Source: an uncultured Clostridium sp.
GTDB lineage: Bacteria; Bacillota; Clostridia; TANB77; CAG-508
DNA length: 64,000 nucleotides
NCBI GenBank assembly: GCA_946496575.1
Contig: CAMMHE010000001.1
Location: 42,511-106,510 of the forward strand
Direction: 5' to 3'
Shown: positions 28,505 to 54,597 of the stretch, piece by piece
Layout: each line of letters starts with the position of its first letter
Position numbering within the stretch: the first letter of the stretch is position 1
Made by a program: the position numbers and the translations under genes
Notes under the pieces: generated by a model
The model's database searches: none
Told to the model about the DNA's origin: nothing
What the model saw: the letters and a program-made list of their open reading frames with translations, nothing else

Positions 28505-28506
28505 CC

Positions 28507-28528
28507 ATGCAAGATGTGAAGCGTTACT
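28507..28528. repeat. 22-bp direct repeat copy 1 (ATGCAAGATGTGAAGCGTTACT); att core / target duplication of the prx-inserted element
   Basis: Exact 22/22 match with 36601..36622; both lie inside the prx reading frame (encode SNASHLA on the minus strand). Confidence 0.75.
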
Positions 28529-28556
28529 TATTTTACCAATGTTACATTTTACTTTT

Positions 28557-30149: not shown

Positions 30150-30204
30150 GTACTTTTACCTCCTATTTTCTAGCAATCACCTGCTAGTTCTATTTTTCTA
30201 TATT

Positions 30205-30333
30205 TATTCAAGTTTTTCTTTTGTTTCTAGTCTTTCTTTTAAATATTCTTTAAATGCATTTCCAAGTTTTTTGTTTATATCTTCCTTTTGGTTGCTAAAT
30301 ATGCAATATACTTTTTCTGTCTCATTTTCCATT
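30205..30333 (-). CDS. small hypothetical protein (42 aa) immediately upstream of the recombinase; candidate regulator or directionality factor
   Basis: ATG with strong RBS (AAAGGAGAAAGTC); MENETEKVYCIFSNQKEDINKKLGNAFKEYLKERLETKEKLE; no known domain. Confidence 0.3.
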
Positions 30334-30991
30334 TTGACTTTCTCCTTTATTGAATATTATTAAAGGTGTTTCAAAAAATAACTGTTTTTTAGAATATAAT
30401 AAAAAAGCCTTTAGGCTATGTACGTTTTATTGTTTGCATAGTTTTGGCTTTTTGTTTAGTTTAAAATTTGTTCACCACTTTTTTAGCATGGTGATTGATA
30501 TGGAAATTGAACATGATTTCCATATATTTCAAGATATAATTATTTTTTTATTTTAATTGCATTATATAGTCTACTTTTTAAAAGTCAATATTTAAAATGT
30601 ATTTTTGCAAAAGGCAGTTTTTTCGATTTTTGCAATTTTCTGTCTTTGTAATTTTTTCAAATCATAATACTTACACTATTCTAAATATAGCCATTCTCGG
30701 TTATGGATAGTAATAAAATATTCAATAAATTTTTATTCATTTTTTTACGTTTTTGGCATTATTTTATAGAAAAAATATATAGAATGAATCATTTTCGATT
30801 AATAAAATATATTTTAGAAAATTTATTTTCATATTTTTATCAAACTGATATATTAAATAAACTTCTTCAATTTTTGTATTTTTTATATATTCGTCTTTAT
30901 TTTTTCTTTTTAAAAATAAATCTTTATATCCATTAATTAAATATTCCTAATTCGCTTAATTTTGTGTCTAGTTTTTATTGACTATTCCACC

Positions 30992-31048
30992 CGCTTTAAC
31001 GAGTCAAAAAAATGTACAAACCGGATGCTTTTGATTATCTATTTATAT
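30992..31048 (+). repeat. ~57-bp imperfect direct repeat, copy 1 (partner at 36411..36467)
   Basis: CGCTTTAA(C/T)GAGTCAAAAAAATGT(A/G)C(A/C)AACCGGAT(G/A)CTT(T/A)TGATTATC(T/C)ATTT..., about 85% identity, same orientation. Confidence 0.5.
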
Positions 31049-31143
31049 ACTTTAATCTAAAATTTTGATATATGTATTTTATTTTTCTTTATTATATGAT
31101 ATATTCATATTACCTTATTTTGAGTACGAAAGGATGGTTTTAA

Positions 31144-31704
31144 TTGTTTGAATTATTTATTAAAGAATGTTATGATGAAGCAATCGAATTAAAAAAGCAA
31201 TTTGAAATTACAGAAGATAAAAAATGGTCAGCACTTACAATTACAAATGAACTTTTTGTTCAATTAGGTCATTACAGTTTTATTATATGTAACAATAAAT
31301 TTGTTGAAGAAAATGGAAGAATTATAAATAATCCTAAAGATGAATTATCTGATATTTTGCTTCAACTATGTGCATTGTGCGGAAAGCTTAATATCGATAA
31401 AAATCATCTTAAATCCTACAACTTTAGGGTAACTACTTTAAATGAAGCAGTTCTGCAATTAGTAACTTTAGTAGGTCAACTGACAGAATGCATAATGGAA
31501 CTTGAAGCATACAGGCATTCAAAAGAAAGACTTGGATATTCTACAAAAATAGAATTTATAATTGAAAGAATTAATAAATGTTTTTCAATTATTTTTAAAA
31601 TCGCAGAAAATCAAAATTATGATATGATTTTTGAATTTAATTTAATGAAAAAAAATTCATTAGAATTTTTAAAAAATTATAGTAAGGAAAAATATTATGT
31701 ATAA
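31144..31704 (+). CDS. hypothetical protein, possible MazG-like all-alpha NTP pyrophosphohydrolase (TTG start)
   Basis: ELSDILLQLCALCGKLNID resembles the MazG EExxE/D-L-GDxL helix motif; overlaps the next gene by 8 nt (operon). Confidence 0.3.
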   Translation: MFELFIKECYDEAIELKKQFEITEDKKWSALTITNELFVQLGHYSFIICNNKFVEENGRIINNPKDELSDILLQLCALCGKLNIDKNHLKSYNFRVTTLNEAVLQLVTLVGQLTECIMELEAYRHSKERLGYSTKIEFIIERINKCFSIIFKIAENQNYDMIFEFNLMKKNSLEFLKNYSKEKYYV

Positions 31705-32824
31705 TTACCCCATTATTGATCTTCATGCCACTTGGTTGGTTGTAAACCCTATACAGGGTTGCCCTAACAGATGTAAATATTGTTTTTTAAATGGAGTAGG
31801 ACTAACTGGTATAAAACCAATCGAATTATTGCAACCATATGAAACTATAAAGATGTTAAAAGAATCCAACCTATATAATCAACAAATACCTATATGCATT
31901 GAATCTCAATCTGATGCTTTTTCAACTCCGAAAAACATAGAATACGTAAAAGAGTTAATAGATATCATGCATAAGCAGCATATAATGAATACCAAAATAT
32001 TCATTACTAAATGTAAAATACCTAATAATTTTATTGACTACTTAAAAAAATATAGAGAAGCTGGACATAATTTTATATTTTTTTTAAGTTATTCTGGTTT
32101 GGATAATGATATAGAAATAGGTATTAACAAAAACAATATTAAAGATAATTTCATAAAATTAAAAGAAAATGGTTTTGATATCATACATTATTGGAGACCT
32201 TTTATACCTCAAAATTCATCTAAAGAAAGAATCATAGAAGTTATGAATTTTGTAAAGCAATATGCTAGATGCTCAATAGCAATTGGTTTAAAGGCTCAAA
32301 ATACTTTTATTGACAAGCTTGATTTTTGGGAAGATATAAAGAAATATCCTGAAGCACCTTATGCTGAAAGTATTTGGACAAAAGAAGCATACGAATATAT
32401 ATATGGTGCAAATCCAATATTAAATGACGATTATCCAATATTTCAATCTACTTCTTGTGCAATTGCTTATGTAAAAAAAGAATGCGATAGAAATGCTTTT
32501 TATGGCTCTAATATTTGTATGAATTACAATAAGTGCCCTGAATCTCAACGAAAAATTTGCAATAATTATTATATCTACACCAATAAAAACATTTCAGAAG
32601 AAACAATAAAAAAACTGCTAGATAATCTTCATTTAGATATCAGAACTGTAAAAATAACTATAAATTATGAGTTAAGGCAAATATGCTTAGAAGGCATAGA
32701 ACTTGGAATGAAGCATTTTACCTATTTAACACAGTTAACTAGATTTAAAATACTTGCCAAGAAAATCAATGGAGATTATTATTGGAATACTTCTGTGAAT
32801 AATGCTAAACAATTGCATATTTGA
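31697..32824 (+). CDS. radical SAM protein, SplB/'DNA repair photolyase'-like family (COG1533-type)
   Basis: [14 protein letters not shown] = CxxxCxxC [4Fe-4S] motif in the N-P-x-x-G-C context of the SPL family; additional C-terminal Cys cluster. Confidence 0.55.
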
Positions 32825-32834
32825 GGAGGTAGTA

Positions 32835-33677
32835 ATGATAAAAAAAGCAGTCATCCCAATTGCTGGCTATGGGACAAGAATGTTGCCAGCTACAATATCT
32901 ATTCCTAAGACAATGCTTAACGTTGTTGATAAACCTATTATAGAATACATTATAGATGAAGTAATCAATGCTCGGAATAACAGAAATTTTATTAATAACA
33001 AATTTAGGATCTTCAATTATTGAAAATCATTTTGCACGAAGTTTTGAACTTGAAAATTTTCTTAAAGAAAAAAATGATATAGAAACATTTGAAAAGATAA
33101 AAAATCGTTATAGTAATGTTAATATTTATATAAAAAAGCTTCTTCAAACTTAAGTTTAGCTGAAAGCGTTTATGATGCAAAGGGTTTTGTTGATGGTGAG
33201 CCATTTTTATTAGTTCTAGGTGATGAAATATTAGGAAATAATGCTTCATGTTCTAAGACACTAGTAGAAAAATACAATGAATTAAAATGTCCAATATTAG
33301 CTGTTAAAAAAATTGGCAGAAGTGATATAAAAAATTATGGCATTGTAGAAAGTAAGCAATACAAGGATAATTTAATGATAATTGAAAAGTTAATAGAAAA
33401 ACCTTCGAAAAATGAGACAAATTCTAATTTGGCAATTATTGGTAGATATGTACTTAATGCTTCTATATTTAGTGAAATTGAGATGTTACAAACTCCTGAT
33501 TTTACTAAAGCAATGCATAATTTAAAAGAACTAAAATTTGCACTATCTATTGATGGAGAAAGATTCGATTGTGGTTCAAAGCTCGGATTAGTAAAGGCCA
33601 ATATATCAATGGCTTTAAAAAATCCAGAAATATCACAAGAATTAAAGAATTATTTAAAAGAATTATTAGAACAGTGA
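32835..33677 (+). pseudogene. UTP--glucose-1-phosphate uridylyltransferase (GalU)-like nucleotidyltransferase with two compensating frameshifts (~32973 and ~33135)
   Basis: [20 protein letters not shown]...VDKP(frame 0) / [33 protein letters not shown](frame +1) / GFVDGEPFLLVLGDEI...LAIIGRYVL...GERFDCGSKLG(frame 0) all align to GalU. Confidence 0.7.
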
Positions 33678-33688
33678 GGAGAAAAATT

Positions 33689-34168
33689 ATGGATGTTTCA
33701 GTGATAATTAATAATACAAAATTTAATTATAGAGTAGCTACTCTGATAAAGAATGATGACAAACTTTTATTGCATAAAAGTAAAGAAGATGATTTTTATG
33801 CAATCCCTGGTGGGAGAATTATGATAGGTGAAAACTCCGAAAATGCATTGAAAAGAGAGCTTCAAGAAGAAATAGGAGCAAAAATAAATATAAAAGACTA
33901 TTTAGGAACAGTAGAAAATTTCTTTGAGTACAATGAAAAAAAATACCATGAAGTCATGATTGTTTATGAGTCTACTTTTGATAGCAATTCAGATTTTTAT
34001 GAAAAAGAAAAAATAATAGGATTAGAAGAAAATGGAAAAATAGAATTTGTTTGGAAAACAATTGACGAAATCAAAAAATTGGATTTACGTCCCCTATTTT
34101 TAAAAGAAAGTATTATCTCAAATACAAAAATAAATCATTTAATAAATAATGCCATTAAACAGCTATAA
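33689..34168 (+). CDS. Nudix hydrolase (159 aa; start at internal ATG with RBS GTGAGGAG)
   Basis: Nudix box GGRIMIGENSENALKRELQEEIG. Confidence 0.75.
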   Translation: MDVSVIINNTKFNYRVATLIKNDDKLLLHKSKEDDFYAIPGGRIMIGENSENALKRELQEEIGAKINIKDYLGTVENFFEYNEKKYHEVMIVYESTFDSNSDFYEKEKIIGLEENGKIEFVWKTIDEIKKLDLRPLFLKESIISNTKINHLINNAIKQL

Positions 34169-34201
34169 AAAAGTTCTCTACGATAATCGTAGAGAACTTT
34201 T

Positions 34202-35035
34202 TTATTCGCTGTAAGTACGCAGAATTTCACTAATCACGTTAATTTTCAGAATTTTAAAAATATTTAGTACATTCGGTTGTGTATTAACATCTGATATTAA
34301 CGGAAGCTCTGCTTTTTGATATAGCATGTCTATTCCTGCAAATGTAATTCCTAATGTTCTACAGCATTTAATTGCTTTTTGTTCATCATCATAAGATAAG
34401 GAACACCTTTCATACCTATACGAACCATCTTTCATAGTAATCCGTTTGAAGCTTGACAAAACTTTGTGTTGAGTAGCAAAAACTTTAATTTCTATACTAG
34501 GCGAAAGAGTTAAGTACTCTTGCAATGCTATTCGCTCATTCATTGGTCTAGTCAGAAGAAATTCATTAAGCATATTCATATCTTTTAATACAAAAACATT
34601 GTTTTCTAAAGCACTATCTTCTAATTTTGCTACTATTGGAAATCCAATTTTTTTTGCAATTATATCTTGAAAACGTAAAGCCATTTTTACATTTGTCACT
34701 ATTGTATTTGGAATTAATCTTTCCTTTTTCAAACACTTATACGTTTCAAGCTTATTTTCACAAATAATTGCAGAAATTGGATTATTATATACCTTGATTC
34801 CAAGACTTTGGATTTGCTTAGCTAATTCCCAAGACTTATCCCAAAATAAAACGCAATCTGGCACGAATTGTATCCCGGAAAAGTAATAATCAAAATCACT
34901 TTTTAGTTTGGAAGCAGGTACTTTTACGCATAAAATATTCTCATCGCAGAATGTTTTAAAAATGAATTCTACAATTCGAAAGTATTCTTCAGAAGTAGAA
35001 GCATCATTATAAACAATCCACCATTTCTTTTTCAT
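34202..35035 (-). CDS. ATP-grasp enzyme (RimK/glutathione-synthetase-like ligase); start at MKKKWW (35035)
   Basis: ATP-grasp core (…KIGFPIVAKLEDSALENNVFVL…ALQEYL…IKVFATQHKV…AGIDML); start is coupled to the stop of the upstream gene (TAAAATG). Confidence 0.6.
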   Translation of the reverse strand: MKKKWWIVYNDASTSEEYFRIVEFIFKTFCDENILCVKVPASKLKSDFDYYFSGIQFVPDCVLFWDKSWELAKQIQSLGIKVYNNPISAIICENKLETYKCLKKERLIPNTIVTNVKMALRFQDIIAKKIGFPIVAKLEDSALENNVFVLKDMNMLNEFLLTRPMNERIALQEYLTLSPSIEIKVFATQHKVLSSFKRITMKDGSYRYERCSLSYDDEQKAIKCCRTLGITFAGIDMLYQKAELPLISDVNTQPNVLNIFKILKINVISEILRTYSE

Positions 35036-35036
35036 T

Positions 35037-36131
35037 TTATCCCTCCAATAGCTGTTTAGTTTTGGTGTAAAGTTCTTCATCATGAATATCTTTACCAAAT
35101 CTGACAAGATATACAAGTACAGAAGAAACTATTTTTTCAATAGACCTACTCGCCTCTCTTTCAAGTTCGTAATCGCTTGTATGTCTAGGGTATATCCAAG
35201 GCTTTCTAAGCGATTCATAATCAATTGGTGTAAAGCATGTTTCATGCATTAATTTTATAGCGTCTTTATTAGATAGTAACCGACTTTCAAAACAAAGAGA
35301 TCTTTCAAAATCGATTTTTGAAAATATTACCATATCCAGTGTTGAAGTTTGTTGAAATGTTGTATCCGGAAAGAAAGTTGGAACATCTGCCAACGGAATT
35401 GGAAAGCTTGTTCTACCTTCTTTAAAAGATTTAGGTAAATGATATTTCCCACTAGCAAGTACATGTTTTTTTAAAAATGCATTATTTTCAATGCTCCCCA
35501 ACTTATAAACTACTGGGATTGGAAAATAGTCCATTTTAGCAGCTCCATTCAAGTACAGGAAAGTGCGATCATTACTAATAATAGATGACTTACCTGCCGA
35601 AAGAAGTTTTGAAAAATATGTAGTTTTTCCGGAACCCTCATTTCCTAAAATGCATATTCCATGTCCATCGGTAACTAAAGATGTGCCATGCATAAATAAC
35701 TTTCCGCTATTTTCTTCTAATCGTACAATAATTTCACGAATCAAACGAAAAACATATTTAGTTGTATTACGGATACCATCCCCAATCACAATGTAATGCT
35801 GGTTTGAAAGTTTCCGAACAATGTACTTGTCTGGAAGTTGCATATAACATTCTTCTGAATCAACAAGTGCTTCCATGTGATATTCATTCTCAAAAGTGCA
35901 AATAATTCTTGTGTTCGAGGATTCAATCAACTTTTTATATTTCAAAAACATTCTTTGTTCTTCAATATATTCAATAAGAATTTGATTGTCATTATCACAA
36001 TCCTCAAAACTAGGTTCAGAATAGCAAAACTTTGCAATATGGTTAATTTGATTTTGAAGAAGATCCAAATAGTCAGTAGAAATTACAAATACATTTCCTA
36101 GGATTAAATAGGAAACTCTATACTTACTCAT
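35037..36131 (-). CDS. HPr-kinase-related P-loop kinase-like protein (364 aa)
   Basis: LFMHGTSLVTDGHGICILGNEGSGKTTYFSKLL matches the HprK/P C-terminal domain P-loop; RBS AAGGAGG. Confidence 0.5.
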   Translation of the reverse strand: MSKYRVSYLILGNVFVISTDYLDLLQNQINHIAKFCYSEPSFEDCDNDNQILIEYIEEQRMFLKYKKLIESSNTRIICTFENEYHMEALVDSEECYMQLPDKYIVRKLSNQHYIVIGDGIRNTTKYVFRLIREIIVRLEENSGKLFMHGTSLVTDGHGICILGNEGSGKTTYFSKLLSAGKSSIISNDRTFLYLNGAAKMDYFPIPVVYKLGSIENNAFLKKHVLASGKYHLPKSFKEGRTSFPIPLADVPTFFPDTTFQQTSTLDMVIFSKIDFERSLCFESRLLSNKDAIKLMHETCFTPIDYESLRKPWIYPRHTSDYELEREASRSIEKIVSSVLVYLVRFGKDIHDEELYTKTKQLLEG

Positions 36132-36205
36132 AAATATTCCTCCTTAAATTAAGTATGGTTTTTATAGGTAAACTGCTCTTGGCAGTAAATAAAATTTACA
36201 TATAT

Positions 36206-36233
36206 ATTATATACGAATTATGTAAATTGTCAA
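36206..36233 (-). promoter_or_regulatory. sigma-A promoter for the HprK-like/ATP-grasp operon
   Basis: On the minus strand: TTGACA-16-TATAAT, ~70 nt upstream of the 36131 start. Confidence 0.4.
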
Positions 36234-36410
36234 TTTTTTACAACTCTTTTCTTCCTTTCATTTTTACCTTTTCTTACCGCTTTTTATCATTTGACCATAC
36301 ACCCTTTTTTTCACTCTCCACTCCTTACCTATATCGTATCTTTTAAACTAGATACACTCTTATTCCTTCAAACTCTTTATTCCCAATAATTTAAGTCTTA
36401 CATAAATATA

Positions 36411-36467
36411 CGCTTTAATGAGTCAAAAAAATGTGCCAACCGGATACTTATGATTATCCATTTCTAT
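36411..36467 (+). repeat. ~57-bp imperfect direct repeat, copy 2
   Basis: See copy 1 at 30992..31048. Confidence 0.5.
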
Positions 36468-36595
36468 GGTATTTTGTTTTCACTTCTGATAAGAAAAAAA
36501 TCGCTCCAGATTTATTTCTAAATCTAAAGCAATTTTATTTTTTTATTTATATATTTTATTTTCACAGGTGATTGCTTATTTTATGTTGGTAAAAT

Positions 36596-36859
36596 TTACA
36601 ATGCAAGATGTGAAGCGTTACTATCTATACTAAGACCTAATAATTCTGTATTAAGTTTTTGAAAATATGTATTAGCTTTGGAAAATGCTATAAATTCTGT
36701 CGTACATACGGGGGTAAAATCTCCAGGATGCGAAAAAAATACTAACCATTTTCCTCTATAATCTTGTAATTTAATATTTCCATATGTAGTTTCAGCTTCA
36801 AAATCAGGTGCAATTTGACCTATTTTTACATTTCCATTCATCATTAATTCATAGTCCAT
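36596..36859 (-). pseudogene. peroxiredoxin N-terminal fragment (87 aa, peroxidatic Cys region)
   Basis: [24 protein letters not shown]...[15 protein letters not shown]...[13 protein letters not shown] then premature stop; RBS GAAGGGAGAG; the 229-aa ORF-track entry is an artefactual upstream extension. Confidence 0.8.
36601..36622. repeat. 22-bp direct repeat copy 2 (ATGCAAGATGTGAAGCGTTACT)
   Basis: Exact match to 28507..28528. Confidence 0.75.
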
Positions 36860-37038
36860 AAATACTCTCCCTTCATATTTTTTATATATTATGAATAATA
36901 ATTTTATAATGTTACCATATAAACTAAAGTAAAAAATAAAAAACATTTTTAAAAATAAATTAAAAAAATATAGCAATACAAATACAAATATGATATAATG
37001 CAAACGAATGGAAAAGTAAGATATGTGGAGGTGAAAGT

Positions 37039-37179
37039 ATGAATAAATATAAATGTAGTATATGTGGATACATATATGATGAGGAGGCAGAAGGAGTAAA
37101 ATTTGAAGATTTACCAGATACTTGGGTATGCCCACTTTGTGGAGTAGGGAAGGAAATGTTTGAAAAGGTAGAAGAGTAA
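37039..37179 (+). CDS. rubredoxin (46 aa)
   Basis: Two CxxCG knuckles: CSICGYIYD...[10 protein letters not shown]. Confidence 0.8.
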
Positions 37180-37203
37180 AATTAGAAATAGGAGGAAATA
37201 AAA

Positions 37204-37743
37204 ATGGAATTAAAAGGATCAAAAACAGAAAAAAATTTAATGGAAGCATTTGCAGGAGAATCACAAGCAAGAAATAAATATACATATTTTGCTAGCAAAG
37301 CAAAAAAAGAAGGATATGAGCAAATAGCAGCTTTATTTCAAGAAACAGCTGATAATGAAAAAGAACACGCAAAATTATGGTTTAAATTACTACATGGAGG
37401 AGATGTTCCATCAACAGTAGAAAACTTAAAAGAAGCAGCTGAAGGAGAAAACTATGAATGGACAGATATGTATGAAAGAATGGCTAAAGAAGCTAGAGAA
37501 GAAGGATTTGATAAGATTGCATATCTATTTGAAGGAGTTGCAAAAATAGAAAAAGAACATGAAGCAAGATATCTAAAACTATTAGATAATGTAGAAAACG
37601 GATTAGTATTTTCAAAAGATGGAGACACAATTTGGAAATGCAGAAACTGTGGACATATTGTAATAGGAAAATCAGCACCAGAGGTATGTCCTGTTTGCAA
37701 TCATTCACAAGCATATTTTGAAGTAAAAGCTGAAAATTATTAA
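37204..37743 (+). CDS. rbr: rubrerythrin
   Basis: Ferritin-like diiron domain ([16 protein letters not shown]...EKEH...) plus C-terminal rubredoxin-like CRNCGH...CPVC. Confidence 0.85.
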
Positions 37744-42472: not shown

Positions 42473-42549
<77 letters not shown>

Positions 42550-42904: not shown

Positions 42905-43621
42905 TCCTCCTTACAACAATTTAGTAAAAATAAAATTCCTGCATATTTAAAGGTAAAAGACGAAAATGAAAGAATTTGGTATATAAATGAAACTATTAAG
43001 AATGGCTGGGCAAGAAGTGTTTTGATTCATCAAATTGAATATGGTCTATATGATAGAGCATCAAAGGAAGAAAAAACACATAATTTTCCAAAAACATTGC
43101 CACAAGTTCAATCAGAGCTAGCAGTACAAACTCTAAAAGATCCATATATATTTGACTTTTTAACTTTATCAAAACAATATAAAGAAAAAGATTTAGAGGA
43201 TCAATTACTCAATTTTTATTGGAATTAGGTGCTGAATTTGCATTTGTGGGTAGGCAATATCATTTAGAGATTGGCGGAGATGATTATTATATAGATTTAT
43301 TGTTTTATCATTTGAAATTAAAATGTTATGTTGTTATTGAGTTAAAAACAGTAGAATTTCAACCAGAATTTGCTCGGGAAACTAAATTTTTATTTGTCAG
43401 CTGTAGATGATATATTAAAGACAAAGGAAGATAATCCATCTATTGGTATTTTATTATGCAAGGAAAAAAATAAAGTAAAAGCAGAATATGCATTAAAAGA
43501 TATAAATAAACCAATAGGAATTTCAAAATATGAATTGATTAAAGCAATACCAGAAGATTTAAAGTCTAATTTGCCAACTGTTGAAGAAATTGAGAGCGAA
43601 ATGGAAGAAAAATTGAAATAA
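42905..43621 (+). pseudogene. DUF1016/YhcG-family PD-(D/E)XK nuclease, N-terminally truncated with two frameshifts (~43215, ~43375)
   Basis: …NGWARSVLIHQIEYGLY…KDPYIFDFL… / LGAEFAFVGRQYHLEIGGDDYYIDLLFYHLKLKCYVVIELK / NFYLSAVDDIL…NPSIGILLCK in three frames. Confidence 0.6.
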
Positions 43622-45195: not shown

Positions 45196-46725
45196 ATGTT
45201 AGAATCAATATGGATACAAAATACAAAAAACACTCAAGAGTATAATAAACTAGAAAAAAATATAGAAACAGAGGTATGTATAATAGGTGCGGGAATATTT
45301 GGCTTATCAACAGCATATTACCTTACACAAAAAGGAATAAATGTAACAGTAGTGGAAGCAGAAAAAGACATAGGATTAAAAACAAGTGGAAATACAACAG
45401 GAAAAATTACAAGTCAACATGGATTATTTTATGATCATTTGATAAAAGACTTTGGAGAAGAATATGCACAAAAATATTTGAATGCAAATGAACAAGCAAT
45501 TAAAAATATAAAAAAAATAATAGATCAAAATAATATAGAATGTGATTTTGAATGGCAAGATAGTTATGTATATACAACAAATGAGGAAGAATTAAGTCAA
45601 ATCCAAGATGAAGTAAACGCTGTAAAAAAATTAGGACTAAATGCAGAATTTGTAACTCAAACGCAATTGCCCTTCAAAATAAAAGCAGCAATAAAATTTC
45701 CAAAACAAGCACAATTTGATAGTAGAAAATATATGTTAGGTCTAGCAAAACAAGTATTAGAAAAAAAAGGAAACATATTTACGAATACACGAGTAACCCA
45801 AATAGCTAAAAGTGTCAATAATTATTTATTAATAACAGAAAATGGAAACATAAATGCAAAAAACATCGTAATTGCATGCCATTATCCATTTGTAAATATT
45901 CCAGGATTTTATTTTACAAAAATGTATCAATCCACATCTTATGCATTAGTTGTGGATACTAAAACTGATTTATTTGAAGGAATGTATATAAATGTTAAAG
46001 AACCAATATATTCATATAGAACTGTAAAATATAATGGAAGAAAAGTCCTAATAATAGTAGGTGCAGACCATAAAACAGGAGAAGCAATTGAAAATAGTAG
46101 TAATTATGAAAAATTGGAAAAAGAAATAAAAAAATGGTATCCAAATTCAGAAATACTATTTAAATGGAATACAGAAGATTGTATAGGACTTGATAAAATA
46201 GCATATATTGGAGACTACTCTAATATAATGCCACATGTATATATAGGAACAGGATTTAAAAAATGGGGAATTACAACGGCAGATATAGCAGCAAATATAA
46301 TAACAGATAAAATAATTGGAAAAGAGAATGATTATGAAAAAATATTTAATAGTAAAAGACTTCATCCAATAAAAAATAGATGGGAAATGAAAAATATGAT
46401 AAAGCAAACGGTTAATTCATTTGCTTTCGAAAAATTTAAAATTCCAGTAGGAGATATAGAAGAAATACAAAATGATAATGCAGCAATTTTAGATATAAAT
46501 GGAACTAATGTGGGAATATATAAAGATACATCTGGAAATATATATGCATTAAAACCTGTATGCAGTCATTTAGGATGTCAACTAAAATGGAATAATTTAG
46601 ACAAAACATGGGATTGCCCATGTCATGGATCAAGATTTGACTATATGGGAAAAAATTTATATAATCCAGCAAATAAAGGGCTTGAACTTATAGACATTAA
46701 TGAATTAACGAAAGGAAAAATATAA
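45196..46725 (+). CDS. FAD-dependent oxidoreductase with C-terminal Rieske [2Fe-2S] domain
   Basis: CIIGAGIFGLSTAYYL (Rossmann FAD) and CSHLGC...CPCHGS (Rieske). Confidence 0.7.
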   Translation: MLESIWIQNTKNTQEYNKLEKNIETEVCIIGAGIFGLSTAYYLTQKGINVTVVEAEKDIGLKTSGNTTGKITSQHGLFYDHLIKDFGEEYAQKYLNANEQAIKNIKKIIDQNNIECDFEWQDSYVYTTNEEELSQIQDEVNAVKKLGLNAEFVTQTQLPFKIKAAIKFPKQAQFDSRKYMLGLAKQVLEKKGNIFTNTRVTQIAKSVNNYLLITENGNINAKNIVIACHYPFVNIPGFYFTKMYQSTSYALVVDTKTDLFEGMYINVKEPIYSYRTVKYNGRKVLIIVGADHKTGEAIENSSNYEKLEKEIKKWYPNSEILFKWNTEDCIGLDKIAYIGDYSNIMPHVYIGTGFKKWGITTADIAANIITDKIIGKENDYEKIFNSKRLHPIKNRWEMKNMIKQTVNSFAFEKFKIPVGDIEEIQNDNAAILDINGTNVGIYKDTSGNIYALKPVCSHLGCQLKWNNLDKTWDCPCHGSRFDYMGKNLYNPANKGLELIDINELTKGKI

Positions 46726-46938
46726 TTGTATAAAAAATATTAAAAAATTTGTCAAAAAGATTGACAATTAACCCTCTTTTTTGTATTATAGCAATATAAA
46801 TCATATATTTATATAATTAATTATTTGTTTATTGAACTAGATTTCTTCTTAACCAGTAATCTAGTTCTTTTTAAAGAAAAACTAATAATTATAAAGAAAG
46901 GAGAATTTCTAGAAAATAATCTAGAATAAAATATTAAA

Positions 46939-47610
46939 ATGGGAAAATTATTTGTAATTGATGGAACAGATGGTAGTGGTAAGCAAACACAATTTGAGAT
47001 GTTAATTAAAAGACTAAAGTTAGAAGAAATAAATATAAAAGTAGTCAGTTTCCCTAATTATGAAAGCGAATCATCATCACTTGTAAAAATGTATTTAAGA
47101 GGTGACTTTGGTGAAGATGCCAAACAGATAAGTCCATATATAGCATCTACATTTTATGCAGCAGATAGATATGCAACATTTAAAACACAATATGAAAGTT
47201 TTTACAATAATGGAGGTATAATATTGGCAGATAGATATACAACAGCAAATATTATACATCAAGCAGGAAAAATAAAAGATAAAGAAGAAAGAGAAAAATT
47301 CTTAAACTGGCTATGGGATTATGAATTTAATTTATATGGGCTACCAGTGCCAACAAAAGTATTCTTCTTAAATATGCCAACAGAATATGCTATTAAATTA
47401 ATGGAACAAAGAAAAAATAAAATAACACATGAAGACAAAAAAGATATACATGAAAGAGATTTTCAATATATGCAAGATTCATATAATGCAGCATGTGATT
47501 TAGTTAAAAAATATAATTGGTATGAAGTAAAATGTGTAAAAGATAATAAAATAAGAAGCTTAAATGATATTCATGAGGAAATTTATCGTGAAATTCAAAA
47601 ATACATATAA
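46939..47610 (+). CDS. tmk: thymidylate kinase-like (d)NMP kinase
   Basis: P-loop VIDGTDGSGKQTQ, …FYAADRYA…, …ILADRYTTANIIHQAG… pattern of the dTMP kinase family. Confidence 0.55.
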   Translation: MGKLFVIDGTDGSGKQTQFEMLIKRLKLEEINIKVVSFPNYESESSSLVKMYLRGDFGEDAKQISPYIASTFYAADRYATFKTQYESFYNNGGIILADRYTTANIIHQAGKIKDKEEREKFLNWLWDYEFNLYGLPVPTKVFFLNMPTEYAIKLMEQRKNKITHEDKKDIHERDFQYMQDSYNAACDLVKKYNWYEVKCVKDNKIRSLNDIHEEIYREIQKYI

Positions 47611-47639
47611 AAATTAAGTTTTACAAGCTTAAATAAATT

Positions 47640-48240
47640 TGTTATACTAAATATCGATGGTACATTATTCTAGTCATACTTACTATTATGAGGGTGGGGC
47701 TAAAAATCCACTAAAGGGCATATCGATGAAGTTTCTTGCTTACGCGCGAAATGCCAGTTTTGTGTGTATTCAGGAAGTAAGAACTACGGATAATATATAA
47801 TGGCATATATGTGATTCCGTATTTCGTGGAGGCTTAAGTAAAATTTAACTTAAGAAGAACCTATGGTGAGTGCCAAGACACGATATACATAGTGTAGCCT
47901 GCCTTGAGTGAAAATACTGGGATTAATTAATAGGTTTAAAATAAATATGGGCCCATATTTATTTTAAATAGAATTATGAAATTATTTTTGCAAAAGAGGA
48001 TAGTAATAGTTAAAAGTATGTTTGGGAAAACCTCTAGAATGTTTGCTCAATTTAGAGCATAGAAATTTAAGGATTAAGGTACGGATTTAAGTGGTGATCT
48101 AGTGGCTATCAAAAGATAGATATTTTCTTTAAATGGAAACGGCTTTGCAGTGATGTAAAGTAGAAAATAGAGAAATTCTACTAGACCTAAACCGTAAAAT
48201 TTACTTAAATTTTGACCATCTATTTTTAGTTTTTATTTAG
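47640..48240 (+). ncRNA. ole: candidate OLE (ornate large extremophilic) RNA, ~600 nt
   Basis: A 600-bp non-coding tract, conspicuously more GC-rich and non-repetitive than flanking intergenic DNA, directly upstream of a 4-TM DxxxD protein that resembles OapA; identity inferred from this arrangement, not verified by alignment. Confidence 0.4.
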
Positions 48241-48258
48241 AGGAGAGAAAAAATATTA

Positions 48259-48816
48259 ATGAAGATAAAAAAGGAAAGAAGTAAAAAATCAAATTCCAAT
48301 CTGAAATGGTATATAGAAGTTATAATTAGTACTTTTATATTATCCATTTTATTTTCATATATATCATCAAATGGGGTTTCAAATTTACCCATAATACCAG
48401 CAATATTAATTTTAGCTATAGTAATATTAATAGGAATAATAGCTGATATGATAGGTGTATCAGTAACAGTTGCAAAAGAGCAAGAATTTCATGCAAAAGC
48501 AACAAAAAAAGTAGAAGGCTCAAAAACATCTATAAGCTTAATTAAAAATGCATCAAGGGTTGCAAATATTTGTTCAGATGTAATAGGAGATATATGTGGA
48601 GTATTAAGTGGAGCAGTAGGAACTTTAATATCATTAAAAATTACTGAAAATATGGGAATATCAGAAAATATACAATATGTAGTAAGTGCCTTAATAGCAT
48701 CAGTAATGGTCGGAGGAAAAGCTGTTGGAAAAGAGATTGGAATAGCAAAAGATACAGAGATCGTACATGCAGTTGGAATAATAATAAATAAATTTAAGAA
48801 AAAGAAATATAAGTGA
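48259..48816 (+). CDS. oapA: small 4-TM membrane protein, OapA-like (OLE-associated protein A)
   Basis: 185 aa, four predicted TM helices, internally duplicated halves with DMIG and DVIGD (DxxxD) motifs; adjacent to the candidate OLE RNA. Confidence 0.45.
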   Translation: MKIKKERSKKSNSNLKWYIEVIISTFILSILFSYISSNGVSNLPIIPAILILAIVILIGIIADMIGVSVTVAKEQEFHAKATKKVEGSKTSISLIKNASRVANICSDVIGDICGVLSGAVGTLISLKITENMGISENIQYVVSALIASVMVGGKAVGKEIGIAKDTEIVHAVGIIINKFKKKKYK

Positions 48817-48986
48817 AAATTAATCACTTATATTTTTTATGCATATTAGTTTTATAAATATTCTAGCTTGTAAAAAATGTCGAAAAATTAGAAGTTGTAA
48901 AAAAATTAGAAAAACCCTTGCAATTTTAGAATAAATATAATATAGTGAATTCAATTTTTTAAAATGAGGGGGTGAAATAAAGGGGA

Positions 48987-49313
48987 TTGAAAACTTTTTT
49001 TGGAGGCATTTTTATTGAAACGAGTAAGCTTAAAGAAGAAGGAATAGAGTATCCAATAAAAGTAGAATATTATAAATTAAAAGATGAAAACAAAACAGAT
49101 AAAAAATATGGAATTAAAATAATAAAGAAAGAATTTAAAAATAAAATTATAGAAATTGAAACAAAAGAAATGAAATCGTTATCAAATGATGAATGCAAAA
49201 TTAATAGGATGTTAGAATTATTTAAGAAAAATGAAGTTACACCTATTTCGGCAGAAGAAATAATTGAAGACTTTTTTGGCAAAACACTTGCCAAATCTGC
49301 AAATTTCGTCTAG
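48987..49313 (+). CDS. hypothetical protein (TTG start uncertain)
   Basis: ORF only; no recognisable motifs. Confidence 0.3.
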   Translation: MKTFFGGIFIETSKLKEEGIEYPIKVEYYKLKDENKTDKKYGIKIIKKEFKNKIIEIETKEMKSLSNDECKINRMLELFKKNEVTPISAEEIIEDFFGKTLAKSANFV

Positions 49314-49333
49314 AATACAATAAGTATAAGAAT

Positions 49334-51358
49334 GTGGAGGAGAATATGGCAGATAAATTAATAATAGTAGAATCACCAGCAAAAGCAAACACAATAAAAA
49401 AGTTTTTAGGAGGTAATACAAAGGTAGTAGCCTCAATGGGACATATAAGAGATCTACCAAAATCAAAACTGGGGATAAACATAGAAAATAACTTTGAACC
49501 AGAATATATAAATATTAGGGGAAAAGGGGATTTAATTAAATCCTTAAAAAAAGAAGCAAAAGCAGCTAAAAAAGTATATCTAGCAACTGACCCAGACCGC
49601 GAAGGGGAAGCTATAGCATGGCATTTAGCACATATATTAGATATAAAAAACACAGAGGGAACAAGAGTTACATTTAATGAAATAACAAAAACTGCTGTTC
49701 AGAAAGCAATAAAAGAGCCAAGGGATATAGACAAAAATCTAGTAGATGCACAACAAGCCAGAAGGGTTTTAGATAGGATAGTAGGTTATAAAATAAGCCC
49801 AGTTTTATGGAAAAAGGTACAAAAAGGACTTTCAGCAGGAAGAGTTCAATCTGTTGCAGTAAAATTAATAGTTGATAGAGAAAAAGAAATTGAGAATTTT
49901 ATACCACAGGAATATTGGAATATATTTGCAACATTACAAGATGAGAAAAGTAAAAAAACATTTGAGGCAAAATTTTTTGGAAAAAATGGAAAAAAGCAAG
50001 AGCTTCATTCAAAAGAAGAAGTAGATTTAATACTAAAAGAAGTGGAAAAATCTAAATTTATTATAAATGAGATAAAAAGAGGTGAAAAAAAGAGAACACC
50101 AGCACCTCCTTTCACAACGAGTACAATGCAGCAAGAAGCATCAAGAAAGTTAGGATTTACATTAAAAAAGACAATGTCAATAGCTCAAAGTTTATATGAA
50201 GGAATACATATTCCTGAAAAAGGAACAATTGGTTTAATTACATATATGAGAACAGATTCTACAAGAATTTCGGAAGAAGCTAGAGTAACAGCTAAAAAAC
50301 ATATAGTAGAAACATATGGTGAAAAATATTATGAAAATAGATATTATAAAACAAATAAAGAATCACAAGATGCACATGAAGGAATTAGGCCAACATATTC
50401 TGATTTAGAACCAGAATCAATAAAAGATAGTTTAACAAAAGATCAATACAAATTGTATAAATTAATATACAATAGATTTATGGCAAGTCAAATGGCATCA
50501 GCAATATATGATACTATGTCAATAAATATAAAAGCAAATAATTATGATTTTAAAGCTAATGGTCAATCTTTAAAATTTAAAGGGTTCATGGCATTGTATG
50601 TAGAAGGAACTGATGGAAAAGAAGAAACCGAACAGGCTATATTACCTAATTTGGAAGAGAAACAAGAAGTAAATAAGCAAAAATTAGAACCAAAGCAAAG
50701 TTTTACAGAGCCACCACCAAGGTATACAGAAGCAAGTTTAGTAAAAGCTTTAGAAGAAAAAGGAATTGGAAGACCAAGTACATACTCACCTACAATAACA
50801 ACAATATTAGAAAGAAGATATATTGAAAAAGAGCAAAAACAATTAAAACCTACAGAATTAGGTAAAATTGTAAACAAATTATTAGTAGAAAATTTTGGAG
50901 ATATTGTAAATGTAGAATTTACAGCAAATATAGAAAATAAATTTGATGGAATTGCAGAAGGAAAACAACAATGGAAAAAAATAATAGAAGACTTTTATGG
51001 CCCATTTGAACAAGAGGTAGAGAAAGTTGAAAAAGAACTTGAACATGTTGTAATTGAACCAGAAGTATCAGATGTACAATGTGAATTATGTGGAAGAATG
51101 ATGGTTTATAAATATGGAAGATATGGAAAATTTTTAGCATGTCCAGGATATCCAGAGTGCAAAAATACAAAACCTATTATACAAACAATAGATATTTTAT
51201 GTCCAAAATGTGGAGGAAAAATACAAGTTCGAAAAACTAAAAGAAAAAGAAATTATTATATTTGCGAGAATAATCCAAAATCTTGCGATTATATTTCTTG
51301 GAACAAACCAGGAGAAGAAAAAAAGCCCAAAAAGCAAGAAAAAAAGGAAAAAAAATAA
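49334..51358 (+). CDS. topA: DNA topoisomerase I
   Basis: Toprim N-terminus (LIIVESPAKANTIKKFLG...), catalytic Tyr region, two C-terminal Zn ribbons (CELCGRMM...CPGYPEC; CPKCGG...C). Confidence 0.9.
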   Translation: MEENMADKLIIVESPAKANTIKKFLGGNTKVVASMGHIRDLPKSKLGINIENNFEPEYINIRGKGDLIKSLKKEAKAAKKVYLATDPDREGEAIAWHLAHILDIKNTEGTRVTFNEITKTAVQKAIKEPRDIDKNLVDAQQARRVLDRIVGYKISPVLWKKVQKGLSAGRVQSVAVKLIVDREKEIENFIPQEYWNIFATLQDEKSKKTFEAKFFGKNGKKQELHSKEEVDLILKEVEKSKFIINEIKRGEKKRTPAPPFTTSTMQQEASRKLGFTLKKTMSIAQSLYEGIHIPEKGTIGLITYMRTDSTRISEEARVTAKKHIVETYGEKYYENRYYKTNKESQDAHEGIRPTYSDLEPESIKDSLTKDQYKLYKLIYNRFMASQMASAIYDTMSINIKANNYDFKANGQSLKFKGFMALYVEGTDGKEETEQAILPNLEEKQEVNKQKLEPKQSFTEPPPRYTEASLVKALEEKGIGRPSTYSPTITTILERRYIEKEQKQLKPTELGKIVNKLLVENFGDIVNVEFTANIENKFDGIAEGKQQWKKIIEDFYGPFEQEVEKVEKELEHVVIEPEVSDVQCELCGRMMVYKYGRYGKFLACPGYPECKNTKPIIQTIDILCPKCGGKIQVRKTKRKRNYYICENNPKSCDYISWNKPGEEKKPKKQEKKEKK

Positions 51359-51497: not shown

Positions 51498-52124
51498 ATG
51501 ATACTAGAAGTAAAAAACATTACAAAAAAATATCAGAATAAAGATGATGAAACAATAGCTTTAAAAAATATTACATTTGGAGTAAATCAAGGTGAATTTT
51601 TAAGCATTATAGGACCAAGTGGCTGTGGGAAGTCAACTTTGCTTTCAATAATAGCAGGATTGGAAACAAAAAATTCAGGAGAAATTTACATAGAAGGTAA
51701 AAAAGTAGAAGGAGATTCACAATTAATTGGATATATGCTTCAAAAAGATTGTTTATTAGAATGGAGAACTATATGGAGTAATACATTATTTGGATTGGAA
51801 GTAAAAGGTAAAAAAACTAAAGAAAATATGGAGTATGTAAAACAATTATTAAAAAAATATAATTTATATGAATTTAAAGATAAATATCCATCTGAATTAT
51901 CAGGAGGAATGAGACAAAGAGTAGCATTAATAAGAACACTTGCTATAAAACCTAAAATATTATTGTTGGACGAAGCATTTTCTGCATTAGATTATCAAAC
52001 TAGAATAATGGTCACAAATGATATATATACCATATTAAAAAAAGAAAAAATTACAGCAATAATTGTAACACATGATATATCAGAAGGGATATTCCAAAGT
52101 AGACACCAATTGAAAAATGCTTGA
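51498..52124 (+). pseudogene. ABC transporter ATP-binding protein (SsuB/TauB-like) truncated at its 3' end by island insertion; C-terminal 38 codons resume at 57669..57783
   Basis: Walker A GPSGCGKST, signature LSGGMRQRVAL, Walker B LLLDEAF, H-loop THDISE, then divergence; ...SEAISMSDKILVLSKRPAVV... found at 57669. Confidence 0.75.
52078..52086. repeat. 9-bp direct repeat TATCAGAAG (target-site duplication, left copy; right copy 57669..57677)
   Basis: Identical 9-mers at both junctions; both lie in the ABC ATPase reading frame (I-S-E). Confidence 0.6.
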
Positions 52125-52471
52125 GAGACGATTTGAATTCAAATTAATTTATGATTCTATAGTACGAAAAAGTAGAGAATTTTGAAGGTTTTTAGCTTAA
52201 AAAAATTCCCTACTTTTAAAAATAAAGAAACATTGATTTTTGGCTACTTACATAGATTTGATTCCCTACTTTGATGTGTCAAGGTAGGGATTCGATATCG
52301 AAAGATAGAGAATATTCTACCTTAAATGGACAGTTCATGGTGAATTTTTAGCAGTTATACATGGTTAAGAGTGGGATACAAGAAACTAGTTGAAAATTAT
52401 GTAAAATTATGCTAAAATATAATATGTAAGCAGTATGCTACAAATTTTGAAAATACAGGAGGATATAAGAC

Positions 52472-53095
52472 ATGAAATTGGAAGTTGTTTTCAAAGATGG
52501 AAGAAAGGAGACTTTCGACGGTGTCGCAAGTTTCAATGTAACAGAGGAAAAAACAGCAAACGAAGAATGCCATGCATATGATGTGGAACATACCCCAACA
52601 GAAGGAAAGCTTTTTGAAGTCAATCCTTTGAGAATCGACCGGAGCAAGTTTAAAATGTCTATGAGAGGCCGGAAGAAGGAATGGACACGGCAGATTATTC
52701 AGGAAGCATTTGCCGAAGTTGACAAGTATCCTGAAAAATATGCTTCCGCGTTCTATACCCTGATTCCGGCGAAAAAATGGAACGGTTTCAAAACTGTTGC
52801 GGAGCTCAATCAGATGGCTTGCAGATTGGGTGACCATAATGCAGATTGGGTCGAGCAAGCTTTAGAGTGGGCTCAGAGAATTTGCAATGGCGAAACCTGG
52901 GAAGATATCTGCAATAATGCAGATACAGCAAAGTGGTATCGAATGATTCTCTGGAAGAATGGATATTACCATCTTGTTGGCGGTTCGCGTGATTACTACA
53001 ATGTCGATCCGGCGTCTCACGTTGACGGCTACGGTTACTCTTCTAATCGCAGTATAGCCTACACTGTGCCGTTGGTTGTGCTTAAGAAAAAGTAA
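52472..53095 (+). CDS. hypothetical protein, compositionally foreign (GC ~50% vs ~28% background)
   Basis: 207-aa ORF with strong RBS AGGAGGATATAAGAC and AT-rich promoter TTGAAA-17-TAAAAT (52390..52418); codon usage and GC are very different from all neighbours. Confidence 0.5.
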   Translation: MKLEVVFKDGRKETFDGVASFNVTEEKTANEECHAYDVEHTPTEGKLFEVNPLRIDRSKFKMSMRGRKKEWTRQIIQEAFAEVDKYPEKYASAFYTLIPAKKWNGFKTVAELNQMACRLGDHNADWVEQALEWAQRICNGETWEDICNNADTAKWYRMILWKNGYYHLVGGSRDYYNVDPASHVDGYGYSSNRSIAYTVPLVVLKKK

Positions 53096-53195
53096 CACTG
53101 CCCACTGTTCCCCGTTTTCGAGAAAGCAAAATCCAAAACTAGGGAATATACTCGAATGAGTACATTCCCTTACATATAAAAAGGGGAAAAGTTAA

Positions 53196-53666
53196 ATGCC
53201 AAATAATGAGTTAATTATTATACCAAAAATAGAAAAATATATAGAATATATATTAACAATATTACTCAAATTACCAAGAACTGAAAAGTTTAGTATAGGT
53301 ACAGAAGTGAAAACAAGTATGTATAATATGTTAAAAAATATATTACTAGCAACAAAAATAGATAAAAGTAAAAGATTGGAAATTTACAATTTAGTAGATG
53401 TAGAAATATACTTTCAAAGAATTTGTATAAGAATAATGTACAACAATGGGTGGATAGATGATAAAAAATATAAATATAGTAATGAGTTATTAAGTGAAAT
53501 AGGAAAAATAATGCAAAGATTAATAGATGAAACAATTCAAGGTGGGTATAATTTTATTTTTGAAGGTACTATGGGAAAATCAGTCAGCATATTAGATAAA
53601 TTACAAGCATCAGAAAATAATTATGATATTATAGCGAGATTAATGGCTGTATCGAGAGAAGAATAA
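53196..53666 (+). CDS. hypothetical protein (possible four-helix-bundle-like N-terminus)
   Basis: ORF; ends at an in-frame TAA followed 12 nt later by the next ORF in the same frame. Confidence 0.35.
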   Translation: MPNNELIIIPKIEKYIEYILTILLKLPRTEKFSIGTEVKTSMYNMLKNILLATKIDKSKRLEIYNLVDVEIYFQRICIRIMYNNGWIDDKKYKYSNELLSEIGKIMQRLIDETIQGGYNFIFEGTMGKSVSILDKLQASENNYDIIARLMAVSREE

Positions 53667-53678
53667 AGATATTTAGAG

Positions 53679-54053
53679 ATGAGAAAAAGCATGGGAATGG
53701 GGAGACTAACTTCTATTAAAGCACATGATGATAGATATACAGGATTTACGAAAATTGCAAGAACTTTAGAAGGAAAGGGAGTAGAAACTGAAGTATATGA
53801 AAGAGGAACTATCCAAATAATACCACAATTAACATATAAAACATCTGGAGATAGAAATATCTATAGATCAGTTCATGAAGCATTAGTAAATGGAAGAGAC
53901 AAAAGTAGAAGAATATGTATGATAAGTGCACAAGCGAGATTAGATGATATAAATAAAGATGTTAAGTCATATTTGTCTGAAGATGATAAACTTGCAGAAG
54001 AACTACAAACATTAAATGATATAATATCAAGAGAGTTGGAAGAAGAACGATAA
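53679..54053 (+). CDS. hypothetical protein (R-x6-H HEPN-like motif RNIYRSVH)
   Basis: ORF in frame with 53196..53666. Confidence 0.3.
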   Translation: MRKSMGMGRLTSIKAHDDRYTGFTKIARTLEGKGVETEVYERGTIQIIPQLTYKTSGDRNIYRSVHEALVNGRDKSRRICMISAQARLDDINKDVKSYLSEDDKLAEELQTLNDIISRELEEER

Positions 54054-54597
54054 AAATTAAATTTTTAACTAATATAGAATTATAAAAAAGCTGTATTTTA
54101 TGATTATAATGAGTGTTTAAATTTTTTTGAAAAGAATAATAACTATAAAAATAGAAATAGATAAGGTTGTTTTAAGAGTAAAGAATTAAAACTTTGCTCT
54201 TTTTATTATGTAGTATAAAAAGTCAGATATTTTCTGATGTATGATAATTTGGATAAATAAAACTCTTCATATTAACGATTTAAATTATTAAAAACGGAAT
54301 AATAATATTTATAAAACATATAAATTGAATAAAAAAGTAGGAGAAAACTATGAATAAAACATTTAAAATAAACGTGTATTTTGATGAAAAAGGTGAAGAC
54401 TTACAAAAAATAATATCATATTTTTTAATTAATAAATTAGAAACCAAAGTAGAAAAATGATTGCTCAATATTTGAATTTATATAAAAATTATTTATAATT
54501 TAATTTAAATTCAAATTGTTTTTTATCAAGCATGAGTTTGTAAATTTTAAATTTGAAAAATTTTAAATTTATGATGAACGTAGTGAAAGGAGGAAGA

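Follow-up and report, generated by a model that had tools for sequence, protein, structure and literature searches.

On the forward strand of the window (the whole 64-kb stretch of DNA analysed), positions 47641–48235 encode, with a high degree of confidence, an OLE RNA, and positions 48259–48816 its membrane partner OapA. The OLE–oapA system is already known, including both its reduced variant and the group of organisms that hosts it; a 2024 survey recorded 2,822 OLE genes in Bacillota, among them a reduced variant of uncultured gut Clostridia (PMC11332333), and the window copy adds little that is new. Few bacterial non-coding RNAs are as large and as well conserved as OLE, and its biochemical activity is still unknown in the field, such that each correctly placed copy aids comparative work; the present one provides an annotation for a 'hypothetical' protein of 185 aa and for a gap of 600 nt, and is a clean example of a compact ole–oapA unit with a conserved promoter. 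The modest additions made here are that conserved, dedicated promoter, a retained P14.1 GNRA loop, and a clade alignment of 69 sequences that distinguishes the helices and loops kept in the lineage from what has been dropped, namely the P13 site for OapB.

Table 1. Features of the ole–oapA locus, in window coordinates, with the basis for each assignment
Feature	Position	Strand	Basis
Putative sigma-70-type promoter	47620–47648	+	Consensus scan, 10 of 12 matches, with TG
OLE RNA gene, variant-1-like	47641–48235	+	RF01071 full model; conserved core ~47655–48224
Invariant hairpin GGUGGGGCUAAAAAUCCACU	47693–47712	+	Rfam model 54–73
Long hairpin	47732–47777	+	Rfam model 93–139
Hairpin with invariant UAAUGGCAUA apex	47781–47825	+	Rfam model 144–190; alignments
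Truncated stem	47833–47854	+	22 nt against 45 consensus positions, Rfam model 198–242
Long composite stem, full length here	47901–48000	+	Rfam model 290–385
3' multi-stem domain (P12–P15 of the literature)	48061–48214	+	Rfam model 444–595
P13-equivalent hairpin	48105–48120	+	Stem CUAUC/GAUAG, A-rich loop (CUAUCAAAAGAUAG); cmscan alignment
GUGA (GNRA) tetraloop on P14.1-equivalent stem	48150–48153	+	cmscan and clade alignments
Ribosome-binding site AGAGGAGAG for oapA	48238–48246	+	Sequence; 12 nt before ATG
oapA, 185-aa CNNM-like membrane protein	48259–48816	+	ORF, conservation, AlphaFold2 model, Foldseek, PF01595 in relatives
Terminator-like A/U-rich hairpin over the oapA stop codon	48802–48838	+	ViennaRNA fold; putative

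Identification of the OLE RNA

OLE stands for ornate, large, extremophilic RNA (Rfam accession: RF01071; Puerta-Fernandez et al. 2006). The initial annotation had drawn attention to a tract of about 600 bp without a credible ORF, of higher G+C than the flanking intergenic DNA, and lying between tmk and the gene for a 185-aa membrane protein, all of which is borne out. The gene upstream (46939–47610) encodes a thymidylate kinase (Pfam accession: PF02223, E 6e-17), the ORF downstream is 185 codons long and its product hydrophobic, and between the tmk stop codon and the ATG at 48259 the longest plus-strand ORF comprises 47 aa; G+C content is 0.28–0.375 over 47600–48200 versus 0.17–0.22 in the intergenic DNA on both flanks, with neighbouring coding DNA at ∼0.25–0.29. 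The 47-aa ORF (47657–47800) lies inside the OLE match and was dismissed as a chance reading frame because it overlies conserved RNA helices.

Scanning of the whole window with Rfam 15 (cmscan) matched the tract on the plus strand to the OLE model over its full length (model positions 1–616 of 616; 344.8 bits, E 1.2e-97; gathering score 50 bits), the sole other Rfam match in the 64 kb being a tRNA at 42473–42546. The OLE RNA/OapA pairing proposed in the initial annotation, which had named the Rfam model as one means of checking it, is supported by this match and by the presence of OapA hallmarks in the protein encoded downstream. It is exceedingly improbable that the tract is some other large structured RNA resembling OLE in composition alone, be it an intron of group I or II, RNase P, tmRNA or a non-coding RNA not yet described: no further Rfam family scores as high as its gathering threshold in the tract, the scan of the window gave no match there to models of group I/II introns, RNase P or tmRNA, by which those identities are excluded, and the long, strictly conserved OLE blocks CUAAAAAUCC, AAAGGGCAUAUCGAUGAAG, GGAUUAAGGUACGGAUUUAAGUGG and AGACCUAAACCGUAAAAUUUAC are present verbatim. 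Nothing was found in favour of such an RNA; the cmscan bias term for the OLE match is high (53.5), owing to the AT-richness of the sequence.

Conservation among related loci

Homologues of the 185-aa protein number 3,812 in a large protein collection, almost all without names, one related entry being called 'CBS domain containing-hemolysin-like protein' in cluster look-ups, and an identical copy is encoded, amid the same neighbouring genes, on metagenome contigs. Scanning one genome per species for relatives yielded 80 loci, all from gut or animal-associated metagenome-assembled genomes (MAGs) whose records bear the label uncultured Clostridia or Clostridium sp.; these labels are consistent, though indirectly, with the occurrence of OLE in anaerobic or extremophilic members of Bacillota. 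With the window OLE as query, nhmmer detected OLE in 76 of the 80; three of the four loci without a match have no upstream DNA, and at the locus L057 no OLE was found by nhmmer within 662 nt upstream of the gene. Each of the 19 loci scanned with Rfam had OLE immediately before the homologous gene, 18 copies being full length at 326–365 bits and one (L033) a partial match to the 3' domain at 100 bits. A much-reduced OLE of 375 nt and 183 bits is present at L014.

For the assessment of covariation, the Rfam structure was projected onto an alignment of 69 full-length OLE copies (68 distinct sequences) through the cmscan alignment of the window copy, giving 147 mapped pairs in 20 helices. Standard pairs occupy 88.5% of cells versus 32–49% when partners are slid by 1–3 columns; 65 pairs have changed on both sides, compared with 26–38 in the slid controls, and double changes are found in 541 cells versus 95–149, with the observed pairing and covariation values reached by 0 of 500 shuffles. 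Compensatory changes, which the initial annotation had suggested seeking in homologous regions, thus support the OLE structure, and the covariation indicates that this structure is under selection in the lineage and that the copy is no relic.

The contrary view, that this OLE is a non-functional remnant decaying in the reduced genome of a gut symbiont, with truncation and the loss of the OapB site as signs of degeneration, could draw on the truncation of one stem and the missing P13 determinants, on the still more reduced copies in related MAGs (L014, and L033 with its 3' domain only), and on L057, where OLE is missing from the examined upstream DNA. It is nonetheless very unlikely, given that ∼290 of 595 OLE positions are invariant among the 69 sequences while the partner proteins have diverged to 61–88% identity, that helices are preserved by compensatory changes, and that neither the promoter nor the oapA reading frame is disrupted, both being conserved; together, this invariance, compensation and integrity indicate purifying selection.

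Structural elements and OLE type

The invariant hairpin at model positions 54–73 shows no change, either in its loop or in any of its six pairs, across all 68 sequences; by reference to the published structure (PMC12265935), it lies at or near P2, the first of the palindromic OapA-binding sites. The nucleotides of the UAAUGGCAUA apex are likewise invariant across the clade, and the hairpin bearing them corresponds to the region of P4a, the second published OapA-binding palindrome. The long hairpin between these two has 20 pairs, is 94% paired and shows compensatory change at six of them; the flanks of its equivalent form a k-turn bound by OapC, and the same stem (model 93–139) is the proposed membrane-spanning helix of a cryo-EM-based model (PMC9723947, PMC12265935), roles which, carried over from the literature, the window hairpin may share. 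Further downstream, helices 8–12 of the composite stem (47901–48000) are rich in compensatory changes, with 12 of 12 pairs covarying in the distal helix, and helices 15–19 of the 3' domain are paired at 94–100%.

Model positions ∼209–231 are deleted from the truncated stem in the cmscan alignment, and this stem, which lies in the length-variable region of OLE, is short in most members of the clade and extended in some. The P13 equivalent reads CUAUC-AAAA-GAUAG, without the GNRA tetraloop and without the single-nucleotide bulge, and in the clade alignment the loop, rich in A/U, varies in both sequence and length. The loop of the P14.1-equivalent stem is GUAA in most relatives and GUGA in the window copy.

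Three classes of OLE RNA have been delineated by score, with full-length RNAs at ≥390 bits, variant 1 at a non-truncated Infernal score of 310–390 and variant 2 at 235–310 (Fernando & Breaker 2024, PMC11332333). Variant 1 has shorter P7–P9 stems, is often without the nucleotides at the P13 tip to which OapB binds, and is commonest in TANB77, uncultured gut Clostridia with reduced genomes (PMC11332333). Scored with the Rfam model, the window OLE reaches 344.8 bits, its full-length relatives 308–365 and a full-length-type control from Pusillibacter faecalis 399.8; assignment to a class by these scores is approximate, since the published limits derive from a model built by the authors rather than from that of Rfam. 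On the strength of this score, the truncation of the stem at model 198–242 and a P13 without GNRA loop and bulge, the window copy is best described as variant-1-like, which it resembles also in having oapA immediately downstream and relatives in uncultured, low-GC gut Clostridia. Only one of three stems is clearly shortened (22 nt), however, and the two that follow it (model 250–281 and 290–385) keep consensus length, unlike those of variant 1 if, as we infer, the three correspond to P7–P9.

Binding of OapB requires the P13 GNRA loop (GUGA in H. halodurans) together with the single-nucleotide bulge, and the P14.1 GNRA loop of H. halodurans is a weak secondary OapB site (PMC7936274). The primary determinants are absent from the P13 equivalent of the window copy, and the complex therefore probably works without OapB bound there; the GUGA loop at 48150–48153, placed with the help of the same study, corresponds to the weak secondary site.

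The proteins themselves were sought within the window, where no KOW/small beta-barrel (OapB) or L7Ae/YbxF (OapC) ORF was found among all ORFs of at least 60 aa, and no OapC-type ORF directly after rpoC, the position presumably occupied by ybxF in Bacillus. This result, the scope of which is the 64-kb window rather than the genome, fits the published pattern, TANB77 genomes being mostly without OapB and OapC (PMC11332333).

The OapA membrane protein

An OapA-type ORF directly follows OLE in the window, where 23 nt separate the two, as it does in P. faecalis and in 76 of the 80 related loci. The published hallmarks of OapA comprise a gene that comes right after ole and, in the protein, four membrane-spanning helices, a distinctive DxxxD motif, a conserved cluster of positive charges and a CNNM-like fold (PMC11332333, PMC12265935); all of these are shown by the window protein and its gene, as judged from gene position, sequence and predicted structure. 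The AlphaFold2 model (pLDDT 76.8) has long helices at residues 4–38, 45–71, 98–132 and 136–163, of which three pass a strict hydropathy cut-off and the fourth is weaker. The initial annotation had assigned a D-x-x-x-D-type motif to each half of the protein; both of the strings it named are present, DMIG at D63–G66 (48445–48456) and DVIGD at D107–D111 (48577–48591), but the latter is the single true DxxxD motif, as DMIG is followed by valine (D63-M-I-G-V) and is left with a lone aspartate, sharing with the motif a D-x-I-G pattern. Invariant in 38 homologues are D63, D107, G110, D111 and the loop E76-F-H-A-K-A-x-K83, part of a conserved basic loop, EFHAKATKK, at residues 76–84. The wider loop (residues 72–99) contains six K/R, with H78, K80, K83 and K89 invariant, and would constitute the positive-charge cluster, for which a cytoplasmic placement is the published OapA feature.

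Structural comparison of the model against the PDB (Foldseek) placed MtCorB (PDB accessions: 7M1T, 7M1U) in positions 1–4 with a probability of 1.00 and TM scores of 0.48–0.58, at marginal E-values of 4e-3, followed by the CorC transmembrane domain (7CFF, 7CFG) and nothing further that is credible. The closest solved structure to H. halodurans OapA is likewise CorB of M. thermophilus, 7M1U (PMC11332333). The window protein has no match in Pfam or NCBIfam, which is not counted against its identity as OapA because there is no public OapA model, no OapA HMM having existed before Fernando & Breaker 2024 (PMC11332333). Weak CNNM matches (PF01595) occur in 34 of 38 family members, far more than to any other family, but none of them reaches the Pfam gathering score; the window protein gave no PF01595 match at all with E values of up to 1 admitted. 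Its resemblance to the CNNM/CorB/CorC/MpfA proteins (PF01595; 7M1T, 7M1U, 7CFF) thus lies in the transmembrane fold, these being its best PDB matches, while it differs from the CNNM/MpfA transporters in having no CBS or CorC-HlyC domain, for which 185 aa leave no room, in having four helices rather than three, and in carrying the DxxxD motif that CNNM domains lack (PMC11332333).

A bridge to a cultured organism, standing in for the H. halodurans OapA (WP_010898928.1/BH2780), came from a tblastn search of plasmid records, which returned one match, on the 504-kb replicon pMM59_01 of P. faecalis. The matching gene encodes a 178-aa 'CNNM domain-containing protein' (WP_213543803.1) and is followed by genes for dxs, a TlyA-family methyltransferase (tlyA) and NAD kinase (nadK), while the unannotated gap of 870 nt before it holds a full-length OLE of 399.8 bits. 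The two proteins align end to end with 35% identity (E 1e-40), and D63 and the DxxxD motif of the window protein are aligned with their counterparts in the P. faecalis protein, whose motif is DVVGD. The arrangement of OLE followed by the membrane-protein gene is the same in both, whereas the P. faecalis RNA is, unlike that of the window, of the full-length type, with 56% GC, long variable stems and a P13 with GCAA loop and bulge, and the pair there is followed by dxs–tlyA–nadK. Pusillibacter faecalis is a cultured species of the Oscillospiraceae.

Putative promoter and transcription unit

Upstream of the RNA, a putative promoter comprises a −35 element TTTACA (47620–47625), a 17-nt spacer with TG and a −10 element TATACT (47643–47648), from which transcription is predicted to start at ∼47654–47657, just before the first conserved OLE nucleotides. 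In 72 sequences anchored at the first conserved block of OLE (GATGGTGCATTATTCTAGT/GATGGTGCAUUAUUCUAGU), both hexamers ahead of the GATGGTGCATTATTCTAGT motif are conserved in register (TTGGAA/TTGTCA/TTTACA, 17 nt, TATAAT), with the −10 element ending ∼7 nt before GATGGTGCAUUAUUCUAGU. The first ∼14 positions of the Rfam match are on this account promoter, and the OLE RNA probably begins near 47655.

A consensus terminator scan found no terminator in 46700–49400, including the interval between OLE and oapA. The hairpin over the oapA stop codon, with a 15-bp stem, a predicted free energy of −13.9 kcal/mol and a U-run in its 3' arm, was missed by that scan because its stem has fewer than three G–C pairs. 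With a conserved promoter upstream, no terminator within and a terminator-like hairpin after oapA, the organisation suggests that ole–oapA is a self-contained bicistronic unit.

One promoter upstream, no terminator between, and a distance of 23 nt from RNA to ORF make the OLE RNA physically the 5' part of the oapA message, a layout that would also fit a mere 5' leader acting in cis, like a riboswitch or an attenuator, on translation or transcription of the membrane-protein gene, in place of a stable RNA with a function of its own. There is very little probability of this in view of the 344.8-bit match to the OLE model, whose 616 positions describe a known, free-standing ribonucleoprotein RNA, and of the ∼150 pairs kept by covariation, far beyond the needs of any known leader; the 3' end, moreover, has neither an expression-platform-like terminator nor a helix sequestering the ribosome-binding site, and the OLE RNA of H. 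halodurans is abundant and binds OapA, OapB and OapC in trans (PMC12265935).

Comparison with H. halodurans and a proposed mechanism

The window locus shares with H. halodurans the gene order of OLE then oapA, a four-helix membrane protein with a DxxxD motif and a basic loop (cytoplasmic in H. halodurans), and the conservation of the OapA-binding palindrome regions in the RNA. It differs in that the H. halodurans pair lies in a long polycistronic isoprenoid/DNA-repair cluster (PMC12265935), whereas the window pair has its own putative, conserved promoter and a terminator-like hairpin, and in that the P13 GUGA loop and bulge to which OapB binds in H. halodurans are both missing from the window copy.

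Recent cryo-EM-based models propose that OLE RNA dimerises and that one stem traverses the bilayer (PMC12265935), and the P2 and P4a regions are invariant in the clade examined here. By analogy with H. halodurans, a dimer of OapA, four-helix and CNNM-like, would bind OLE near P2 and P4a through its basic cytoplasmic face and so hold the RNA at the membrane, and the resulting ribonucleoprotein may help the cell to withstand excess Mg2+, cold, short-chain alcohols and poor carbon sources.

A tentative extension, which we regard as possible without favouring it, is that the OLE particle of this clade is a minimal, independently transcribed module of promoter, OLE, oapA and terminator, with no OapB at P13 and perhaps with no OapB or OapC at all. 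That such organisms have lost the P13 site has already been published, the new elements being the self-contained unit and the kept P14.1 GNRA loop; if the extension were true, this would be the simplest natural OLE ribonucleoprotein and a convenient one in which to work out the role of the RNA.

The genes that surround the pair, which in the window sits between tmk and DUF6514–topA, are not fixed, tmk preceding it at roughly half of the related loci and DUF6514–topA lying downstream in a subset at varying distance, and they are therefore treated as synteny and not as parts of the system. Another promoter-like site is located ahead of the DUF6514–topA pair.

OLE and OapA in related loci

In several related MAGs the homologue of oapA, the gene for the membrane-protein partner of OLE RNA, is intact and the OLE preceding it is much shortened or absent. 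The copy at one of these gut loci (L014:2714-3088) spans 375 nt, scores 183 bits and lacks roughly the middle third; at another (L033:3194-3350) OLE is represented by its 3' domain only (model positions 436-595), adjoining an ABC-ATPase gene; and at a third (L057:1-662) OLE was not found in the 662 nt 5' of the oapA homologue. Such shortening or absence may be genuine, or it may be an artefact of assembly. Variation is also seen in the protein, with some OapA homologues of this clade (P0045, P0053 and P0067; 238-240 aa) carrying a Lys- and Glu-rich N-terminal extension of ~55 residues; at their loci OLE lies correspondingly further from the conserved portion of the gene.

The DUF6514 gene lies directly 5' of topA, an adjacency found in the window and in a subset of the related loci; its partner in synteny is topA, not OLE. 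This topA is intact and is the second type IA topoisomerase gene of the window, the other (2361-4371) being present as two overlapping ORFs, which could reflect a frameshift or an error in sequencing, or could mark a pseudogene.

An apparently split gene, gene fragments and an interrupted operon

An AhpC/TSA peroxiredoxin gene (28061-37285) is apparently in two parts lying ~8 kb apart. The intervening stretch begins with a large serine recombinase and also has one radical-SAM and one NUDIX gene, along with several small ORFs without a family. An integrated element thus seems to break up the peroxiredoxin gene. Just 3' of a tRNA gene, three short ORFs contain fragments of a YhcG-type PDDEXK nuclease gene, possibly what is left of a mobile element at the tRNA site.

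In an ABC transporter operon (51498-59729), ~5.6 kb part the ATPase gene from those of the permease and the binding protein. The insert includes a bAvd-like gene, bAvd being an accessory protein of DGRs; no reverse transcriptase was detected among the ORFs scanned. It also holds a serine recombinase present as two ORFs, an AAA_14/DUF4143 ATPase, a 207-aa ORF without a family and a 124-aa ORF.

Window coordinates of the topoisomerase genes and of the apparently split gene, the gene fragments and the interrupted operon, with their neighbours
Feature	Position	Strand
Topoisomerase, Toprim ORF	2361-3005	
Topoisomerase, Topoisom_bac ORF	2974-4371	
Peroxiredoxin, C-terminal part	28061-28504	-
Large serine recombinase	28557-30149	-
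Peroxiredoxin, N-terminal part	within 36596-37285	-
tRNA gene	42473-42546	
YhcG-type nuclease fragments	43022-43621	
DUF6514 gene	48987-49313	
topA	49334-51358	
ABC transporter ATPase	51498-52124	
bAvd-like gene	53196-53666	
Serine recombinase, two ORFs	54553-55224 + 55484-56167	
AAA_14/DUF4143 ATPase	56278-57591	
ABC transporter permease	57844-58620	
NMT1-type binding protein	58689-59729
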